A DNA stretch of 64,000 nucleotides, taken from Escherichia virus TH40. The stretch is taken from sequence record MT446411.1, one strand, 5' to 3'. Under the pieces are notes generated by a model that was not told where the DNA came from, ran no database searches, and was given only the letters and a program-made list of their open reading frames with translations. Position numbers and translations under genes: made by a program. This document shows, in pieces, positions 5,293-51,367 of this stretch (the first letter of the stretch is position 1; every line of letters starts with the position of its first letter).

Positions 5293-8007
5293 TTAAAAAT
5301 CAAACATATCAAAAAGAGATGCTTTTTTCTCGTAATCAACCTTAGCTGCTTCAGAGAACCCTGTTAACGGTTTGACAAAAGTCTTCTGGAACAGTGTGTT
5401 GTAGTCCATCCACTGCAGAACCTGGTCACGAATTTCAATCGGGAGTTCAATCCCTGATGGCCATGCAATCACGGTTTCGCCAAACGGGTTACCAACTTTA
5501 AGAGGAAGCACATACACCTTTTCCCCTTCCATGATTTGTGGAACAGTCTTCAGCCCTTTAGTTGCACGCATATATGCAAGCACACCTTTGATATGAGCCG
5601 GGCACTTAAATCCAGGGAAACCACCCTCATTATATTTCTGGATGTTGTTAACTGATGATACACCCGCGATGGTCATGTAGTTAAGCTCATTAAATTCCTT
5701 ATTGAATTCCTTGAAGTATGTCTGCAGAGATTCTTCACCTTCTTGCAGCATGCGACGGATACATTCTTTCAGAGCTTTCTGGCATGCTTTTGGGGTGCTC
5801 GACTTTTGAGTTTCCAGACCCATGATTTTAAGTTTCGGAACAGCATATCGTGTGCCTTCCATATCGTACACATTCAGAGCATAACGCTTCTTCGCTGTCC
5901 AGAATCCACCAACACCTTTAGAACCCAGCGGAGGGCATGCAATCGCTTCACGGTCCATAAACATAAGGTGCTGTTTGTTGTTCATGTATTCAGCCAGCTC
6001 ACGGAAAGCTTTATCGATTGCCGGTTCCAGACGGTCTTTCGCAAACTTGTCCATGAAGTCAACCAGGTGGTTTGTATCGCGGAATTTAGATTCGCCACCA
6101 ACCTTTTTAATCAGGTTATCGCACTGAATATAAATGGAGTCAGTATCGCCATAGAATACATATGTTTCACCACTTGTACCACAAACACTATCAAAATATT
6201 CGTTAACTTTACGCTCAATCCACTGCAATGCAAGTTGACCAAAAGATGTAATTGCGGTTGCATTTCGCAGGTCAAAATAACGGAACCAGATATTACCCAG
6301 AGCACCATAACAACTGTTGATAAGCAGTTTACGGTTAATCTGTGCGGTCATGCCTGCAACTTCTTCCATCTGCGCTTTGTACAACATACCATTCAGAACT
6401 GTTTGATTCAGACCATGCAAGGCTGTTTTCATATTGTCATCAAAGTCATAACGATAATCAACTTCAGGCTCGGTTGTACCAACTCCTGGATTACGCAGAG
6501 CTTCCTTAATCAGTTCACCATTACGTTGAGCCGCAAGCATATAACCTTTGTGCTCTTTACGCTGATTAAACACCTTGGTGACTTCTGTCGGAATAATACC
6601 TGCAACATCTTTAAAATACATCATACCGTTTGGAGCACAACTAAATGTATCAGATGGACGGTCAGCAGTTCCTGCGATGTATTCGTACATTGGCGCTGGT
6701 GCAAATGAGCCGGCAATCGTTTCTGGACTGATGTTAATCTGTCGGATGATGCTCGGATACAGAGATGTTAAGTCACAGCTCATAACGTATTTGTATGCGT
6801 TCGGAATCGGTTCCTTAACAAATGCACCAGGGAACGATTGGCGAACATGCGATTTGGTTTCCGGAATGACTTTGTTTTGAGTCTTCAGGCTGTTAAAGAT
6901 AATCGCATCCCAAGTTTTGATTGGGCTGAATACAGACTGAATCTGCATTTTTGCGTAATAACCCATTGACTGGCTAAGGTTAATAAACTGTCGTTTACGG
7001 TCAATCTGTACAACACGATAAACATCGATGATGTTATAAGAAATATACCGTTGGTGATTTGATTCACGCAGTTTAGAAATCGGACCATCATACGGGAGTT
7101 TACCAACACCCAGCTCAGATTCTGCAACATAATCCAACGAATAAGATGGTTGGTTTGTGAAGCTGAACTTTTTGTACAGGTCCAGATAATCCAGAACAGA
7201 GATACCCAGAATCTGAATGATTTCTTGTTCTTCACCGAAACCGTTGTTAATGACCTTAACTTTTGTACGACGATGTGGACTCAGTCGTTTTGCCGTAGCT
7301 TCACCAAATACATTTTTAAGGCGGTTGTAGATATATGGAATATCAAACTTCTCGATGTTCCAACCAGTTAACATAACCGGAGTTTTCTCGTTCCAGAATA
7401 CCAAATACTGCTGGAGCATTTCTTCTTCTGAATCGAAAGCCATATAAACAATTTTTTCCAGGATTTCTTCAGGGACTTCATCGCCGCCATCTTCTTGCAG
7501 CTTAGCAGCAATATCGATAGACCATTGCTCCACAGTGGCGTATGGTGAGCTCAAAAGGTCAAAGACATAGAATTTATCGTCTATCGAATCATAGTGCGTC
7601 AGGGCATCAATAGGGTGACGTGCTTCAGACGGCTCAGGGAACCCATCAGGAGATGTCACCTCGATATCGAAGTTAGCCACACGGATTTTACTTGAATCGT
7701 ATTTGATTTCGTGTGGGTAACGGTCGGACAAGTACGCGAGTTTAAAGTCATCCATACCCATAGCTTCGAGACCCATGTCATTCATTCGCTTCATCCACTG
7801 GGATGCATCACGCATGGAATCGAATTCTTTTTTCACACAACCTTTATTATAGATGTCTGTATACTTTGCAGCCTGGTCTTCGCGGGCATGCATAAACAGG
7901 CATGGAGCATAGGGGATTTCACGAACACGTTCATGACCATTCTTGTCAATGTATCGTTCGAGTAGGTTGTCACCGATTTGTTCGATAGTTAAATAAAATT
8001 CTTGCAT
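5293..8007 (-). CDS. 43: Family-B DNA polymerase with 3'-5' exonuclease (T4 gp43-like)
   Basis: 904 aa; exo motif FDIE, polymerase motif YGDTDS, overall T4 gp43-like. Confidence 0.96.
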   Translation of the reverse strand: MQEFYLTIEQIGDNLLERYIDKNGHERVREIPYAPCLFMHAREDQAAKYTDIYNKGCVKKEFDSMRDASQWMKRMNDMGLEAMGMDDFKLAYLSDRYPHEIKYDSSKIRVANFDIEVTSPDGFPEPSEARHPIDALTHYDSIDDKFYVFDLLSSPYATVEQWSIDIAAKLQEDGGDEVPEEILEKIVYMAFDSEEEMLQQYLVFWNEKTPVMLTGWNIEKFDIPYIYNRLKNVFGEATAKRLSPHRRTKVKVINNGFGEEQEIIQILGISVLDYLDLYKKFSFTNQPSYSLDYVAESELGVGKLPYDGPISKLRESNHQRYISYNIIDVYRVVQIDRKRQFINLSQSMGYYAKMQIQSVFSPIKTWDAIIFNSLKTQNKVIPETKSHVRQSFPGAFVKEPIPNAYKYVMSCDLTSLYPSIIRQINISPETIAGSFAPAPMYEYIAGTADRPSDTFSCAPNGMMYFKDVAGIIPTEVTKVFNQRKEHKGYMLAAQRNGELIKEALRNPGVGTTEPEVDYRYDFDDNMKTALHGLNQTVLNGMLYKAQMEEVAGMTAQINRKLLINSCYGALGNIWFRYFDLRNATAITSFGQLALQWIERKVNEYFDSVCGTSGETYVFYGDTDSIYIQCDNLIKKVGGESKFRDTNHLVDFMDKFAKDRLEPAIDKAFRELAEYMNNKQHLMFMDREAIACPPLGSKGVGGFWTAKKRYALNVYDMEGTRYAVPKLKIMGLETQKSSTPKACQKALKECIRRMLQEGEESLQTYFKEFNKEFNELNYMTIAGVSSVNNIQKYNEGGFPGFKCPAHIKGVLAYMRATKGLKTVPQIMEGEKVYVLPLKVGNPFGETVIAWPSGIELPIEIRDQVLQWMDYNTLFQKTFVKPLTGFSEAAKVDYEKKASLFDMFDF

Positions 8008-28945: not shown

Positions 28946-29152
28946 TCACTTGCGACGACGTTTTGGTAATGGTTTAGGGAAGAACATTGCTTTACCTGCA
29001 GGGGTCAAAGTCACATGCAAAGCATTACCAATACCAAGGGATGCTTTAACCAGACCTTTAGCTTTTAACTCACCAAATGCTTGACGTTGTTCAGGGTCAC
29101 GAGTGTTAACCATCAGACCTTTTTCACCAGCAGCTTTGATTAATTCTAACAT
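28946..29152 (-). CDS. Hypothetical basic protein (68 aa)
   Basis: ORF track; preceded by type-B promoter-leader. Confidence 0.45.
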   Translation of the reverse strand: MLELIKAAGEKGLMVNTRDPEQRQAFGELKAKGLVKASLGIGNALHVTLTPAGKAMFFPKPLPKRRRK

Positions 29153-29159
29153 TTTATTC

Positions 29160-29223
29160 TCCGTTTGTTTATTTGGTAACTCAGTATGGAATCATTATGC
29201 ATCATGACCATCTGGTTGTACAC
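29160..29223 (-). promoter_or_regulatory. Type-B early promoter-leader cassette
   Basis: Forward tttatttggtaactcagtatggaatcattatgc...ttgtacac read directly. Confidence 0.45.
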
Positions 29224-29269
29224 ATATACTAAATAAAAATACTTAATAAAACCATAAAGGAGAAAGTTT

Positions 29270-30016
29270 ATGATTTTATCCGGAAGAACTGTTGATGAAC
29301 TCAATGAAAAAGTCCAGGCTGCCTTGGCTGATAATTGGTATTTGTTTGGTTCTACTATGGTGTTGCCGAATACCCCTACAGATAGCAAAGAGCGTTTTTT
29401 CCAAACTATGTCCAGCTCGGAAACTCAGATACCGGGTCCGCCTGGTCCCAAAGGAGAACCGGGTGTACCAGGACCAAAAGGAGACCCAGGTGGGGATGGA
29501 AAATCTTCTTATCAGATATGGCTTGACTTGGGAAATACAGGAACTGTTGATGATTTTTTAACTGATACAGCAGGAAAGAGGGAAAAATCCGAGGTGTTTT
29601 GGAGTGGTATAAACGTTCTATTAACTAATGGTACGACTTCAAACATAATTAGTGTTTTAAAGGGGATTCCACCGACTGCAGGGACTCTATCTCCGTTTTT
29701 TAGAACCACTGATGATAAGTTGTGGCCATATAACCAAGACAGAAGCCTAATGTTTAAACTCAACCTTATTGGTAATTTTGCAGGAGCCTCGCAAGCTCGA
29801 AGTATAACATTAAATTTCGTTGGAACCAACGGAAACACTTATATACAGAATCGTCCGGAAAATGCTACAGATATTTTGTCTTTTACAACGTTCTTTAGCA
29901 TTGATAAAGATGGGGCAATGGCAACCAATGGTACAGCTATAACTGTTATGCCAAATGGCGGCAACTTTACAATAACCTCTGCATTGTTAGTAGCCGAACA
30001 AACAGCGACTTCATAA
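29270..30016 (+). CDS. Collagen-like repeat protein with tail-fibre-type motif (plus-strand island)
   Basis: 248 aa; GPPGPKGEPGVPGPKGDPGGDG Gly-X-Y run followed by KSSYQIWLDLGNTGTVDDFL; AAAGGAGAAAG SD; opposite strand to all neighbours. Confidence 0.6.
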   Translation: MILSGRTVDELNEKVQAALADNWYLFGSTMVLPNTPTDSKERFFQTMSSSETQIPGPPGPKGEPGVPGPKGDPGGDGKSSYQIWLDLGNTGTVDDFLTDTAGKREKSEVFWSGINVLLTNGTTSNIISVLKGIPPTAGTLSPFFRTTDDKLWPYNQDRSLMFKLNLIGNFAGASQARSITLNFVGTNGNTYIQNRPENATDILSFTTFFSIDKDGAMATNGTAITVMPNGGNFTITSALLVAEQTATS

Positions 30017-30017
30017 A

Positions 30018-30038
30018 CAAAAAAGGGCCGTATGGCCC
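30018..30038. terminator. Bidirectional terminator hairpin GGGCC-GTAT-GGCCC between convergent genes
   Basis: Forward acaaaaaaGGGCCGTATGGCCCtt; U-run is on the minus-strand transcript side. Confidence 0.45.
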
Positions 30039-30281
30039 TTAGATTGCACTCCAAAAATTATGGAATCTTATAGTATTGATAGCCCAGTTAACAAACCTGC
30101 GAGTTTGCTTGGGAGTTGGTTTGCATGTGTACTTGATATTGTCCCGACGACCAGTTTCACGACAGACTGCTTCGAGATACCAGCGGCGACCTTTATGAGG
30201 TCTTCCATACGATAAGAAGACCTTGATTTCCTGGTTATCGATAATAGGAATTGTGGTTGTCAAGATATACCTCCTCAACAA
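30039..30281 (-). CDS. Hypothetical basic protein (80 aa)
   Basis: ORF track; overlaps the end of the nucleotidyltransferase gene. Confidence 0.35.
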   Translation of the reverse strand: MLRRYILTTTIPIIDNQEIKVFLSYGRPHKGRRWYLEAVCRETGRRDNIKYTCKPTPKQTRRFVNWAINTIRFHNFWSAI

Positions 30282-31245
30282 ACTTGTCCCAGAACTTCAT
30301 GTCCACCTTCGCAGGCATACCGTTCTTATGAGCCCAGATGGCATTAGTTTCGACTTCATCAACGATAGCTTCAAGTTCAGCCTGTACATCTTTAAAAGCA
30401 TGTAGCCCTTGTTTGATTTCAAGGATAAACGGTGCTGTTCGTAAAGGATATTGAAGGTCACCGGTCATATAAATTTCCTTCAGCTGATATCCAGCACGAT
30501 AAGCATGGCTCAGAGCTTTCCAATCAATGCCTTCATTAGCTTCGGCCTTACGAGCACGTTCACCATATTCAGCATCAAGTTTATTCAGAGATTGCTTGAG
30601 CTCGATTAAGGACAAAGTGGTTTGGTATTTACGACCGAGGACAGTATAGAACGTTTGAGGACCTGTTTTCTCATGGTTATGGAATACCCATTCACAGAAC
30701 TCGTTTTCGGGGAGTCGGTGCTTAATATCTTCTACCTTAGTTCGACGTTGCTTAACAGAACCATCTTCTTGATAATCGACCCACTGTTCAGGAATCTGGT
30801 TAACTATAGCTAGTACACCACGCAGTGCAGCCAGACGAGAACCTTTAACACCATATTTGGAAGCTTGCTTACGGACGTACCCTAAATAGGCTTTCATGTT
30901 AGTTGTATAGAACCGCGAACGGTTGTCTTGAATAAACTTCCATACATCTGGTAAATCGGATTTGACTACCAGGTCAGCCGGTGTGTGAATCATATCCAGG
31001 GCAACGGTTTCACCTTCGGCTGCCAGTTTAAAGAAATATTTCAGGCTATAAAGTTCATGGTCAACATCGTCTTTTGTGTTCTTTGATGCAGTGTTATTCG
31101 TGCTCAGGTTTGTATGGTTCATCGCGGTTCCGAGCAGGATATCTCGCGGATGTGGAACAAAGATTTCTTTAAAATCGACATCAGATTCTGGAGTACTTGT
31201 TCCATAAAGGTGGGAGCCAAAATATCCCTTCATAACTGTTTTCAT
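30235..31245 (-). CDS. Pol-beta-superfamily nucleotidyltransferase-fold protein
   Basis: 336 aa; N-terminal GSHLYGTSTPESDVDF matches the G[SG]-x(9-13)-D-x-[DE] NTase signature. Confidence 0.6.
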   Translation of the reverse strand: MKTVMKGYFGSHLYGTSTPESDVDFKEIFVPHPRDILLGTAMNHTNLSTNNTASKNTKDDVDHELYSLKYFFKLAAEGETVALDMIHTPADLVVKSDLPDVWKFIQDNRSRFYTTNMKAYLGYVRKQASKYGVKGSRLAALRGVLAIVNQIPEQWVDYQEDGSVKQRRTKVEDIKHRLPENEFCEWVFHNHEKTGPQTFYTVLGRKYQTTLSLIELKQSLNKLDAEYGERARKAEANEGIDWKALSHAYRAGYQLKEIYMTGDLQYPLRTAPFILEIKQGLHAFKDVQAELEAIVDEVETNAIWAHKNGMPAKVDMKFWDKFVEEVYLDNHNSYYR

Positions 31246-32048
31246 TATTCACCTCTTTCATAGTCTTCAATAAATTGCATAATTAAACGCTGATAATTGG
31301 ATTTAGGGTATCCTAATTTACTAATATGAGTACCAAAAGCTCCACGCTTTGGCCTATTTAATTTAAGCCATAACGAGTAAAGCAAATCATAATCTTGCCA
31401 CTGTTTTCCTATTCTTTGTTTTGCTTTAGAAGCATCAGATTGTCTCTTTTTAGTCTCTGGATTATTTAAAGATTTCTTAACAGCATTCGAATGACGTTCT
31501 CTAACATCTGGCCGTTTAAATGCTTCTTTAATCGCTTTAGAAATTTTCTCTTTAACTTCAGGACGGTTTTGGGCTTCTATTTGAACAGCCGACATTTTAT
31601 CCTTTATTTTGGGCAGACTCATAGTTATAGAGCGTTTGTTTCTATATTCTTTGGTCTTCCATATTTCTTTCATTGTATTCGAATGAATTTCTGAAAATTT
31701 TTCTCTAACTAATTGGTATCCCCTAGAAGTTAATTTAAGGTTTCTTCCCAGAGAATCTTCGCCGAAGTTATAAAATGACCACCAGGCATAAATTAATCCA
31801 GAAGAATCGGAATGAATTCTAGCTAGAAGCCAGTGTGCTATAAAATGTTCTCTAGCTGTCAACAGAACCAAATTATTAGGTTCATCACTCCCGCCAATAC
31901 ATGACGGGATTATATGATGGGACTCTGTATAAAAATTTAATTTGGATTTGTCTAATCCTCTAAGTTTACCTCTTTGGATTAGACTATCATAAAGCTTGAT
32001 ATAATTCATTATGAATTTGTTTTGTTCTCGAAGTGGATTACCGGACAC
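31245..32048 (-). CDS. HNH homing endonuclease with NUMOD-like C-terminal repeats (mob-like)
   Basis: 267 aa; HHIIP..GGSDEPNNLVLL..EHFIAHW HNH core; repeated RPEVKEK / RPDVRERH / NPETKKR modules; AT-rich. Confidence 0.8.
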   Translation of the reverse strand: MSGNPLREQNKFIMNYIKLYDSLIQRGKLRGLDKSKLNFYTESHHIIPSCIGGSDEPNNLVLLTAREHFIAHWLLARIHSDSSGLIYAWWSFYNFGEDSLGRNLKLTSRGYQLVREKFSEIHSNTMKEIWKTKEYRNKRSITMSLPKIKDKMSAVQIEAQNRPEVKEKISKAIKEAFKRPDVRERHSNAVKKSLNNPETKKRQSDASKAKQRIGKQWQDYDLLYSLWLKLNRPKRGAFGTHISKLGYPKSNYQRLIMQFIEDYERGE

Positions 32049-32467
32049 ATCTTAGATTTACGAGCTTTAATATATTGAATGAAAACATTTTCTTTAATTT
32101 CCTTTCCTTCACGTTTAGCTTTAATGCGTTCCCATTCTTTTTCTTCTTTACGTAAATCGTACCAGGCCCATAAATTCATTAGACCATACATTAGACCAAA
32201 TGCTACCGTCAGAATAAGAGCCAGTGTAGCTAGTCCTAAAATAAACCCTAAGCCTAAACCGACCGGGGTGCTTAATACAAAGAAATGCTCTAATACACCT
32301 GCACCCGCGACAGTTAATCCAAAAACCATACTACCGATAAAAACGGCACAAACAAAACAAGCCCAAACCATTTTCCAGAAATAAGCACACAAAGAGTGTG
32401 GACGAGAATGACGGTCATAAAAACGGTCGTGGAAACGAGCATGCCATGAGTTTGTATTGATAATCAT
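32009..32467 (-). CDS. Hypothetical multi-TM membrane protein (152 aa)
   Basis: ORF track; several hydrophobic helices. Confidence 0.45.
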   Translation of the reverse strand: MIINTNSWHARFHDRFYDRHSRPHSLCAYFWKMVWACFVCAVFIGSMVFGLTVAGAGVLEHFFVLSTPVGLGLGFILGLATLALILTVAFGLMYGLMNLWAWYDLRKEEKEWERIKAKREGKEIKENVFIQYIKARKSKMCPVIHFENKTNS

Positions 32468-32478
32468 AATAATTTTCC

Positions 32479-33039
32479 TTAAGAGTTCATAGTTGGGATA
32501 ACAGAGTTCAGATAAGAGACTAAAACTTTTAGCTCGTCCTTAGTAAATACCACTTCATTAAAACCATCGTGTACTTGGGTAATACATAGTTGGTCACGGC
32601 CGCCATGTTGAACAACAGCCAGTTCAGTATTATAATTCAATTCTTCTTCGTCGCCATCAAAGGTTTCACTGGAGTGAATCAGCGCATCTTGACCTGGCAC
32701 TTTCCATTCAACTTCTGGCTTACATTCTTCCTGGAAGAGTTTGAAAATACAATCAAAGAATTTATCAGAATCGCTGATACTTAGACATTTTTCATCTGTT
32801 TCAATATTAAACCCGCCATCGTGCTTATAAATGCGAGCGCATACGTCATCGTTAATATCAAATACACCACTAAAACTACCGCTAAGATATTCATCTTTAT
32901 CCAAAACCTTTAAATCATAAAGTGGTTTGATATCTTGGATAGTCAGTACGATTTTATCGTCTTCTTGACAAAGCTCAATTGCGTTATTAACTACTTTAGC
33001 GGTCAGTTCGCCAAACAATTCAGTTGTTTCAATAATCAT
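32479..33039 (-). CDS. Hypothetical acidic protein (186 aa)
   Basis: ORF track. Confidence 0.45.
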   Translation of the reverse strand: MIIETTELFGELTAKVVNNAIELCQEDDKIVLTIQDIKPLYDLKVLDKDEYLSGSFSGVFDINDDVCARIYKHDGGFNIETDEKCLSISDSDKFFDCIFKLFQEECKPEVEWKVPGQDALIHSSETFDGDEEELNYNTELAVVQHGGRDQLCITQVHDGFNEVVFTKDELKVLVSYLNSVIPTMNS

Positions 33040-33051
33040 TTTAATTTCCTC

Positions 33052-33342
33052 TTAACGGTTATGTTTTAAAATACTATAAAGAGCTTCTACTTGGCTTGCA
33101 TCCAGGTAAATAACATCATCATCTTGCTCAATGGAAATACCACCAGTATTACCTGCAACAAAATTACATTCGCACACTTCAACGGGACGGTATACGTCAC
33201 CAACTGGATGCTCAGGCTCCAGAACAATAATACCATTTTCAGAATTACCACTAGGGTCATATAACATTACAGTTTCCTCGCTAACCATGAAAAGAATAAA
33301 CCAATTAAAACAGGCCCTACAGCCATTATTAACCAAGCCCAA
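33052..33342 (-). CDS. Hypothetical protein (96 aa)
   Basis: ORF track. Confidence 0.4.
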   Translation of the reverse strand: MGLVNNGCRACFNWFILFMVSEETVMLYDPSGNSENGIIVLEPEHPVGDVYRPVEVCECNFVAGNTGGISIEQDDDVIYLDASQVEALYSILKHNR

Positions 33343-33358
33343 GGTTCAAGATAGTAAA

Positions 33359-33616
33359 TCATCTCATGCTCCTATGCCAACAGTTTCTTGGTTCACGTTT
33401 AAAAACTTTATCATGCATTGATTGGCAACCAACACAATATATCACACCTTTAATCGCTTGTCTCCGCGCTTCAGGAATTTTTTCATCGCAGTCAAAACAG
33501 AATTCAGCAGACTCCCTTTCAACTGCAACCTGTGCTCTTGCATGGGTGATAGCGGCTTGTACAACCGCTTCCATCTCTAACTGTTCAGCGCCATCTTTTG
33601 CAAATCCAACAGCCAT
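33359..33616 (-). CDS. TraR/DksA-type C4 zinc-finger protein
   Basis: 85 aa; CFDCDEKIPEARRQAIKGVIYCVGCQ (CxxC-x17-CxxC). Confidence 0.5.
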   Translation of the reverse strand: MAVGFAKDGAEQLEMEAVVQAAITHARAQVAVERESAEFCFDCDEKIPEARRQAIKGVIYCVGCQSMHDKVFKREPRNCWHRSMR

Positions 33617-43855: not shown

Positions 43856-44866
43856 TTATTTTGAAAAAGGACGAATTAAATGTTGGTTAGCCTTGAAACG
43901 TTTAACATAGTCTTCGCGACCCAGGGTGTTGTACATATTCACTACTTCCTGGTAATGTTCCCAGGCATACTCACGAAACCATCCAGAAGTAATGGAGGTG
44001 CAGACTTTTTCCAGAGCAATATGGAAGCTCACGGATGGAGAGATACTAAACTCGTTAGGAACCTGCGAACGCTCCAGAGCGAGCACACATGCTTCTTCAT
44101 AAACCCCTGCCAGTTTAATAACATCAGGGAGTGCTTCAAATTTTTCACGCGAGGTCATGACTTCCGAATCATCCTTCATATAGAACTTATATGCAGGCTT
44201 ATCAGCAAGCGCCACGGCCTCGTGGATGGAGTCATGGTCAAGGGTATAGATTGTATCATTAAAGAAAGTTTTCTTGCCCACGTCTAGTTTAGGGTGGCTA
44301 TATGACAGTGTTTCTGCCTGACGTTGTAACATAATTTTCTGCAGTTCATCATTAAGAACAACACCCTTATTACGAAGGTAATTAATATGGCTCATGGTCT
44401 TCAGGAAGAATGGATTGTTCTTCAGGTAACGATGAGACAATTTAATTGCCAGACAAATATCAGGGGTCGCCCAATAGAAACCTGTAAGACGGTCTTTCTT
44501 AATATGATTTTCAGCGTATTTCAAGAGACGATAACTTGAGGTGAAATCTTCATCTTGAAGCTCACCAGTAATTTCTCGTACGTTGGTCAGGGCACGGACA
44601 ATATAAGCTTCAAAATAGGTTTCTTTGCCATTGTACATACATTTAAAAGCTTGGACATCAGGGTTATCCACAGGAACATGAGCACCGAACATACGTGCTT
44701 TAAAGTGGTTCCATGAGCCCTGGTCAGCGATGAAGTCCCAATCAGAGTTTTCAATTTTCTGACTTTCAATCAGACCAGCGTTATGTAATGCACGAGAACC
44801 AATAACTAACATCATAATATTTTCCTCAGATAACTTAAATTTCAGCAGCAGAGATATTAGATTCAT
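43856..44866 (-). CDS. Hypothetical protein (336 aa), possible nucleotidyltransferase-like N-terminus
   Basis: ORF track; N-terminal VIGSRALHNAGL..SDWDF loosely fits the NTase GS..D.D pattern. Confidence 0.5.
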   Translation of the reverse strand: MNLISLLLKFKLSEENIMMLVIGSRALHNAGLIESQKIENSDWDFIADQGSWNHFKARMFGAHVPVDNPDVQAFKCMYNGKETYFEAYIVRALTNVREITGELQDEDFTSSYRLLKYAENHIKKDRLTGFYWATPDICLAIKLSHRYLKNNPFFLKTMSHINYLRNKGVVLNDELQKIMLQRQAETLSYSHPKLDVGKKTFFNDTIYTLDHDSIHEAVALADKPAYKFYMKDDSEVMTSREKFEALPDVIKLAGVYEEACVLALERSQVPNEFSISPSVSFHIALEKVCTSITSGWFREYAWEHYQEVVNMYNTLGREDYVKRFKANQHLIRPFSK

Positions 44867-51084: not shown

Positions 51085-51160
51085 TGGTCGAGACAGTAGG
51101 AATCGAACCTACGACCCAGGACTTAGAAGGTCCTTGCTCTTCCTTCTGAGCTATGCCTCG
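51085..51160 (-). tRNA. tRNA-Arg (anticodon UCU)
   Basis: Manual fold of reverse complement: 7-bp acceptor CGAGGCA/UGUCUCG, anticodon loop CUUCUAA, T-loop UUCGAUU, encoded CCA. Confidence 0.7.
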
Positions 51161-51293: not shown

Positions 51294-51367
51294 TGGTGGC
51301 CCTGGGTGGAATCGAACCACCATCCAGCGATTATGAGTCGCTCGCTTGACCGTCCAGCTACAGGGCC
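51294..51367 (-). tRNA. tRNA with CAU anticodon (Met or lysidine-type Ile)
   Basis: Manual fold: acceptor GGCCCUG/CAGGGCC, anticodon stem-loop AGCGA-CUCAUAA-UCGCU, T-loop UUCGAUU, encoded CCA. Confidence 0.7.

Follow-up and report, generated by a model that had tools for sequence, protein, structure and literature searches.

NrdC.11 of the T4-like phage TH40, a long-form RlaP-family nucleotidyltransferase adjoining a mobile mobD cassette, and its proposed role in RNA repair

The 64,000-nucleotide stretch of Escherichia virus TH40 analysed here (sequence record MT446411.1; hereafter the window) carries a 336-amino-acid (aa) nucleotidyltransferase (NTase) gene next to an HNH homing endonuclease gene. 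The first is the nrdC.11 gene of T4-like phages, and its product is a long-form, divergent member of the RlaP (PF10127) family. The second is mobD, a selfish free-standing HNH homing cassette inserted exactly between nrdC.11 and a membrane-protein gene, with translational coupling to each. The role favoured for NrdC.11, with reasonable rather than high confidence, is nucleotide fill-in repair at the RNA 3' ends of cleaved tRNA before sealing by Pnk and Rnl1. A preliminary description made from the sequence had picked out both genes, and its assignment of the 336-aa product to the Pol-beta superfamily was borne out by the catalytic motif, the Pfam and PHROG matches and the predicted fold.

Identity and family of NrdC.11

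The G+C content of the window is 37-42%, and its genes are almost all on the minus strand. A megablast search with positions 29000..33500 matched 389 phage records, the best of which were all T4-like Straboviridae of the Gaprivervirus and Dhakavirus groups (TH54, RZ, VR26, SP18, VR7, E33; 87-93% identity), and the window phage is T4-like, belonging to the Straboviridae and resembling Gaprivervirus. Annotated relatives name the two genes 'nrdC.11 / nucleotidyltransferase' and 'mobD / homing endonuclease'; the pair is flanked there by nrdC.9/.8 and, at its other end, by mobD.1, rI and tk. Orthology to the T4 genes is near certain, and the pair is the known nrdC.11/mobD of T4 in the T4 arrangement, that is, real, ordinary and already-known gene content. 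The 336-aa protein, which begins MKTVMKGYFGSHLYGTSTPESDVDF, was 83% identical to T4T NrdC.11 across all 336 residues in a direct comparison, and this full-length identity, together with conserved synteny, places it in the NrdC.11 orthologous group. T4 NrdC.11 has the same length, and its gene occupies the same place after mobD and the genes on the mobD.1 side; the protein differs by allelic changes only, whereas the surroundings of the gene differ in that the window phage lacks an adjacent nrdC.10 and has a plus-strand, tail-needle-knob-like open reading frame (ORF) instead.

The protein matched PHROG 388 'nucleotidyltransferase' (E = 5e-132) and passed the gathering threshold of the Pfam RlaP profile (E = 1.3e-10; 41.9 bits, cut-off 23). 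The Pfam match was confined to residues 8-135, corresponding to profile positions 25-143 of 249, and no match to the whole model, including its C-terminal helical domain, was obtained with Pfam. The same profile was matched by 47 of 48 diverse NrdC.11 homologues (34-83% identity), which also served as the conservation set. An hhalign comparison of the NrdC.11 type with canonical RlaP gave E = 2.6e-6 over the N-terminal 124 columns only, and paired D62 with a conserved Asp of canonical RlaP.

The Pol-beta superfamily motif hG[GS]-x(9-13)-Dh[DE]h is present in the N-terminal region, where residues 8-25 read YFGSHLYGTSTPESDVDF. Residues G10, G15, S21, D22, D24, N56, D60, G78, D84 and Y131 were invariant across the conservation set, as were R230, D241, K243, H247, R250, P267 and G280 further downstream, while S11 and D62 were at least 90% conserved. 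The preliminary description had made the assignment depend on conserved Asp residues; D22 and D24 are retained in all 48 homologues. For the third acidic position, D60 is invariant and D62 lies on strand 61-67.

Among the subfamilies that had been listed (CCA-adding enzymes, RlaP-like proteins and cyclic-nucleotide synthases), the protein belongs with RlaP. The PolyA_pol head with neck and body domains of a CCA-adding enzyme or poly(A) polymerase was absent. PADLOC returned no match for NrdC.11; a cGAS/DncV-like synthase was rejected, with no Pfam or PADLOC match and none among the structural matches.

The NrdC.11 family comprises 2,585 close database clusters and 3,045 representatives at 50% identity (E <= 1e-3), 777 of them at E <= 1e-30; among the 150 best representatives listed, nearly all were full length. 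The type was found in 1,542 phage records. Homologues are often named 'thioredoxin' in GenBank and UniRef, apparently through the gene name nrdC, and one public NrdC.11 entry is labelled 'HNH homing endonuclease'; these are annotation errors.

Predicted structure and variable insert

In the AlphaFold model (predicted local distance difference test score 91.3), the protein folds as a Pol-beta nucleotidyltransferase. Its N-terminal part is an NTase core of alpha/beta type; the remainder consists of a hairpin of helices, a small insert rich in beta structure (residues ~150-210) and, at the C terminus, a bundle of helices. The predicted structure contains the minimal alpha/beta fold of NTases. The best structural neighbour of the model was HalB. 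Hailong HalB and the kanamycin nucleotidyltransferase ANT(4') share 10-14% identity with NrdC.11, act on other substrates and showed no family-level sequence match. Searches of PDB sequences, with the single protein and with the 48-sequence profile, found no solved relative, and a PfRlaP structure was not found.

The insert (residues 149-212, positions 30610..30801) is the least conserved part of the protein, with 20% identity compared to 31-57% for the other segments (33% for residues 263-310). Two alleles of it, very unlike each other, recombine among close relatives, as in the mosaic P0076. Together with the C-terminal half, it is specific to the NrdC.11 clade.

RNA-repair neighbourhoods of cellular homologues

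A scan of one genome per prokaryotic species with the 48-sequence alignment yielded 80 loci with full-length NrdC.11 homologues (32-51% identity), in Desulfobacterales, Nitrospirota, Alphaproteobacteria, archaea and others. ORFs were called and neighbours clustered for the 72 loci that were usable. The neighbour seen most often was a canonical full-length RlaP (~265 aa, 253 bits), found at position +1 and always on the same strand in 16 of the 72 loci; the NrdC.11-type gene, at ~6001-6950, was followed by RlaP in loci L007, L012, L013, L022, L025, L031, L037 and L042, and likewise in L050, L053, L060, L061, L064, L078 and L081. Pnkp ligase, Hen1, RtcB, Ro60/TROVE and a sigma-54 activator also recurred as neighbours. 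Within 6 kb, 10 of the 72 loci had one or more of Pnkp, Hen1, RtcB and Ro, in arrangements such as Hen1-Pnkp-NrdC11L-RlaP and Ro-RtcB-x-NrdC11L-RlaP-Hen1; the two NTase genes are often embedded together in Hen1-Pnkp or Ro-RtcB operons.

This pairing, together with the N-terminal-only profile match, indicates that the NrdC.11 type is a separate, long-form paralogue, often found in company with canonical RlaP; as neighbours in the same cells, the two are paralogues rather than equivalents. The pairing of two NTases is not mentioned in the RlaP preprint (PMC12776372). Canonical RlaP itself was present in 86 phage records, from jumbo Pseudomonas, Caulobacter and Brevundimonas phages plus a small number of others; the phage record search found none in T4-like phages. 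The RlaP-type RNA-repair neighbourhood was seen around the cellular homologues and not inside phage genomes. The close relative VR26 encodes pseT and rnlA away from nrdC.11, so that partners for healing and sealing are present in the lineage.

The Pseudomonas RlaP pair, encoded between rtcB and rtcA, was characterised in a December 2025 preprint (PMC12776372). PfRlaP and PaRlaP add one or two nucleoside monophosphates (NMPs) or their deoxy forms (dNMPs) to an RNA 3'-OH, DNA and protein not being substrates; they prefer Mn2+ and, in a mimic of broken tRNA, act preferentially on the 5' half, and through their action a tRNA short of one anticodon-loop nucleotide regains part of its aminoacylation (PMC12776372). 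They also label full-length tRNA and rRNA, with little nucleoside triphosphate (NTP) specificity (PMC12776372). The preliminary description had named RNA-modifying enzymes among the phage NTases of this fold; for the RlaP family, the reported substrate class is RNA 3' ends (PMC12776372). In the same preprint, T4 NrdC.11 is assigned to PF10127 cluster 5, 'of unknown function', and RlaP is proposed as an antidote to cut-then-trim nucleases such as RloC (PMC12776372); Iyer and colleagues predicted the same repair role for phage RlaPs (PMC7824862).

NrdC.11 and Pseudomonas RlaP (cluster 1a) share the Pfam family, the G-S...D-x-D...D core and the order of an NTase domain followed by a helical domain, and both types are associated with RNA-repair genes. 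In contrast, their homology is detectable over ~125 N-terminal residues only, and NrdC.11 is ~70 residues longer, with the beta-rich variable insert and a divergent C-terminal half.

Proposed role of NrdC.11

From the orthology, fold and catalytic residues of NrdC.11 and the RNA-repair operons of its cellular homologues, we infer an RNA substrate and, in the phage, a role in repair. In the proposed mechanism, a host anticodon nuclease would cut a tRNA and trim one nucleotide in an RloC-like manner, and the phage polynucleotide kinase/phosphatase (PseT) would heal the cut ends. The putative two-metal site of NrdC.11 (D22, D24, D60/D62) would then add one or two untemplated NMPs at the RNA 3'-OH, and RNA ligase 1 (Rnl1) would seal the break, part of the products being functional tRNA.

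Several observations weigh against this fill-in role. The RlaP match covers only the N-terminal ~125-130 residues and the rest is clade-specific, so that substrate or specificity may differ. The RlaPs assayed belong to cluster 1a and are not of the NrdC.11 type, and transfer to an RNA 3'-OH by NrdC.11 would follow by analogy with them. The frequent cellular pairing with canonical RlaP suggests non-redundant roles, and T4-like phages are without the partner. No ligase or kinase genes were found beside NrdC.11 homologues in phage genomes, distant phages included. Finally, the nrdC.11-mobD.3 segment of T4 is dispensable under laboratory conditions (PMC9825161); loss of this block in laboratory T4 is compatible with an accessory role that depends on the host.

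The lack of linkage to ligase or kinase genes in phages also speaks for the strongest alternative, in which NrdC.11 tails RNA 3' ends for a purpose other than the repair of breaks, for example rebuilding the CCA end of tRNA or tagging RNA of host or phage for decay or protection. Labelling of full-length tRNA and rRNA by RlaPs, with their little NTP specificity (PMC12776372), points the same way, as does the template-free extension of 3' ends by HalB, the best structural neighbour. Tailing of this kind is nevertheless considered unlikely next to fill-in repair. Nucleotidylation of a small molecule or protein, as by ANT-, LinB- or MntA-like enzymes, for example to neutralise a host toxin or metabolite, appears less likely still: the likenesses that suggest it are at the level of the fold only (7-14% identity), the tested RlaPs do not use proteins or DNA (PMC12776372), and the gene neighbourhoods indicate RNA repair. 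There was likewise no PADLOC match, and the NCBIfam MntA match was below threshold (18 residues, E = 0.052, 13.4 bits against 60), so that no genuine toxin-antitoxin match was obtained. Synthesis of, or interference with, a signalling oligonucleotide or cyclic nucleotide, in the manner of HalB or the CD-NTases, is very improbable.

The mobD gene and its cassette

The HNH gene matched PHROG 655 'homing endonuclease' (E = 6.6e-57), and its product is 79.4% identical to T4T MobD and 96% to that of phage E33. The HNH residues are H31-H32...N46...H55, and the Pfam HNH profile scored 17.8 bits (cut-off 21.4). Like the NTase ORF, the HNH ORF is not a chance one. The description of this product as a homing endonuclease stands, and only its length needs revision. 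The mechanical ORF (31245..32048, minus strand; 267 aa, containing ESHHIIPSCIGGSDEPNNLVLLTAREH) starts at GTG 32048, which lies inside the upstream gene and outside the cassette, so that the 267 aa are an artefact of ORF calling. VR26 annotates the ATG corresponding to window position 32009 as the mobD start, and the true product is probably 254 aa long. The NUMOD-like repeats reported for it were recovered in part: residues 101-200 have a 17-residue period (z = 6.6, reached by none of 2000 shuffles), while no Pfam NUMOD model matched at E <= 1. The DNA-binding region of the endonuclease is thus read as built of repeats. In E33, mobD (locus L084, 1503..2266) is annotated as a 143-aa fragment; tblastn aligned all 254 residues in one piece at 96%, and the short annotation is probably a start-site problem rather than a pseudogene.

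The overlap of the NTase start codon with the HNH stop was confirmed as a single base in TAATG, shared by the mobD TAA (31247..31245) and the nrdC.11 ATG (31245..31243). In RZ, which has no mobD, the stop of the upstream membrane-protein gene overlaps the nrdC.11 start as ATGA. The cassette is absent from the eight best-matching genomes and present in VR26, E33 and T4, a presence/absence polymorphism at a fixed site between conserved genes. The idea that the endonuclease marks an insertion site is thereby supported in close relatives, where the inserted segment spans 770 bp. MobD at 60% identity or more was found in only ~54 phage records, compared to 1,542 with NrdC.11.

T4 mobD has been listed as free-standing, HNH-type and inserted at 'nrdC.11/mobD.1', with activity 'ND' and target unknown (PMC2988022). 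It shares with the window gene the insertion locus directly upstream of nrdC.11 and the lack of an evident promoter of its own. In T4, however, mobD.1 lies upstream after a 74-nucleotide (nt) gap and mobD overlaps nrdC.11 by 17 nt, whereas in the window phage the upstream neighbour is a membrane-protein gene, and mobD shares one nucleotide with each flanking gene in TAATG.

The adjacency of the two genes is a homing-site relationship and not a functional partnership. A single two-gene system of endonuclease and NTase, to which the stop/start overlap and the same adjacency in T4 might point, is hardly credible and already close to refuted by the presence/absence data, as by far the most phages, and every one of the 72 cellular loci, have nrdC.11 without mobD, the upstream gene is likewise coupled to nrdC.11 where mobD is absent, and MobD relatives adjoin many unrelated genes.

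No T4 late promoter (TATAAATA) was found near nrdC.11 and mobD, and a sigma-70 promoter scan performed no better than on shuffled sequence. A MotA-box-like TGCTT with a spaced TAnnnT (TGCTTTACTCGTTATGGCTTAAATT) occurs at 31360..31384 (minus strand) within mobD, towards its 3' end and ~115-140 nt ahead of the nrdC.11 start codon; across the window, the pattern was found 30 times against 13.8 expected. This site could be a candidate middle promoter for nrdC.11.

A candidate MobD target in nrdC.11

Three independent mobD+ genomes and 12 mobD- genomes of the same backbone were compared over flanks of 1,463 nt, a separating position being one that splits all mobD+ from at least 75% of the mobD- genomes. 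Besides the junction base and one site at -78, such positions were confined to 31228..31214. They correspond to synonymous differences in codons 6-11 (AAG GGA TAT TTT GGC TCC versus AAA GGC TAC TTC GGT AGC), the empty site of RZ or TH54 reading AAAGGCTACTTCGGTAGC and the window AAGGGATATTTTGGCTCC. This mobD-linked tract overlies the codons of the catalytic G-S motif. The mobD-type haplotype was present in 3/3 mobD+ and 1/12 mobD- genomes, which are not independent samples, and identity to the mobD+ genomes was raised only within ~100 nt downstream of the cassette.

The tract is a candidate for either a short co-conversion tract or a MobD-resistant target, and the probable recognition site of MobD is the 5' end of nrdC.11 in mobD-less alleles. 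Two observations argue against this. SP18 (locus L087) has the mobD-type haplotype without mobD, which is consistent with past loss of mobD or a co-conversion remnant. Moreover, the tract was not reproduced in the T4 clade, where T4 and several mobD-less T4-type phages are nearly identical at these positions. Two pattern scans of IMG/VR gave only 23 loci, which limits the association test.

A second nucleotidyltransferase-fold gene

The preliminary description also noted a weaker NTase-like N-terminus in a mechanical ORF of 336 aa at 43856..44866, and this resemblance proved real. Homologues begin at M18, which is most likely the start and gives a product of 319 aa. Across 28 homologues, G6, S7, D25, D27, E69, K125, H128, R129, D193, H194 and D195 are invariant. 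The best structural matches were the tRNA-nucleotidyltransferase toxins MenT1, TglT and MenT4, and the product has a MenT-like nucleotidyltransferase fold, with catalytic motifs I and II of the MenT/AbiEii type. It differs from MenT/AbiEii toxins in that no Pfam AbiEii/DUF1814 match was obtained, no adjacent antitoxin-like gene was identified and the gene is phage-encoded. A relation to NrdC.11 or to T4 NrdC.10 was considered and rejected, there being no sequence relation. The ORF falls in PHROG 2141 'unknown', and its family, present in 731 phage records, is mostly labelled 'hypothetical'; the literature search found no paper naming DUF7275 or DUF7277. It is the less well-known of the two NTases of the window.

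Other features of the window

Coordinates of the features are collected in Table 1.

Table 1. Features of nrdC.11, mobD and the second nucleotidyltransferase gene in the window of Escherichia virus TH40.
Feature	Position	Strand	Basis or remark
nrdC.11 ortholog, RlaP-family (PF10127) Pol-beta-type nucleotidyltransferase, 336 aa	30235..31245	-	
NTase motif, codons 10-25 (GSHLYGTSTPESDVDF), with G10, S11 and metal-binding D22 and D24	31171..31218	-	48-homologue alignment
Six synonymous differences in nrdC.11 codons 6-11 (KGYFGS), linked to mobD	31214..31228	-	15-nt tract
mobD ortholog, free-standing HNH homing endonuclease, probably 254 aa (mechanical ORF to GTG 32048)	31245..32009	-	T4T/E33 identity, VR26 start
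mobD cassette, 770 bp, absent from the mobD-less relatives RZ, TH54, VR7 and SP18	31250..32019	-	BLASTN breakpoints, junction alignment
Upstream predicted membrane protein gene, 152 aa, TAA stop overlapping mobD ATG (TAATG)	32009..32467	-	'membrane protein' in VR26, RZ and VR7
Hairpin resembling a terminator, with a T run after it, ~195 nt beyond the nrdC.11 stop codon	30023..30040	-	consensus scan only
Second NTase-fold gene, most likely 319 aa from M18, Pfam DUF7277 and DUF7275	43856..44815	-	

The plus-strand ORF at 29270..30016, which stands amid minus-strand early genes, occupies the place of nrdC.10 in T4. It encodes a collagen-like G-x-y run and an Sf6-type tail-needle-knob domain (Pfam Phage_tail_NK, E = 2.6e-32). 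RZ has this ORF; VR26 lacks it and, like VR7, has two small ORFs there. For the MobD.1 homologue (32479..33039, minus strand), the Pfam matches are the T4_y05I_N/C 'putative transcription factor' domains. Genes for two phage tRNAs, tRNA-Arg(UCU) and tRNA-Met(CAU), lie on the minus strand at 51085..51160 and 51294..51367.

Implications

Taken together, the observations could be joined into a broader but doubtful picture. The NrdC.11 type would be a distinct second NTase of RNA-repair systems, in tandem with canonical RlaP in cells and alone in T4-like phages, where it would restore the wobble nucleotide excised by RloC for Pnk/Rnl1. The insert at residues 149-212 would be a substrate-recognition module diversifying in an arms race, and MobD would home by cutting the codons of the G-S motif. 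The same phages would carry a MenT-like tRNA nucleotidyltransferase (DUF7277/DUF7275).

The analysis leaves three leads: that the two RlaP types pair in cells, a candidate site for MobD and a MenT-like NTase so far without annotation. The 15-nt tract gives a concrete candidate site for MobD, whose target is listed as unknown, and the 'thioredoxin' labels of NrdC.11 and the 'hypothetical' label of the second NTase can be corrected. The nrdC.11 gene is nearly universal in T4-like phages. The family biochemistry of late 2025 and the operon contexts lead to a direct prediction for its product, which, if true, would make NrdC.11 a means by which phages counter nucleases that trim tRNA as well as cutting it.

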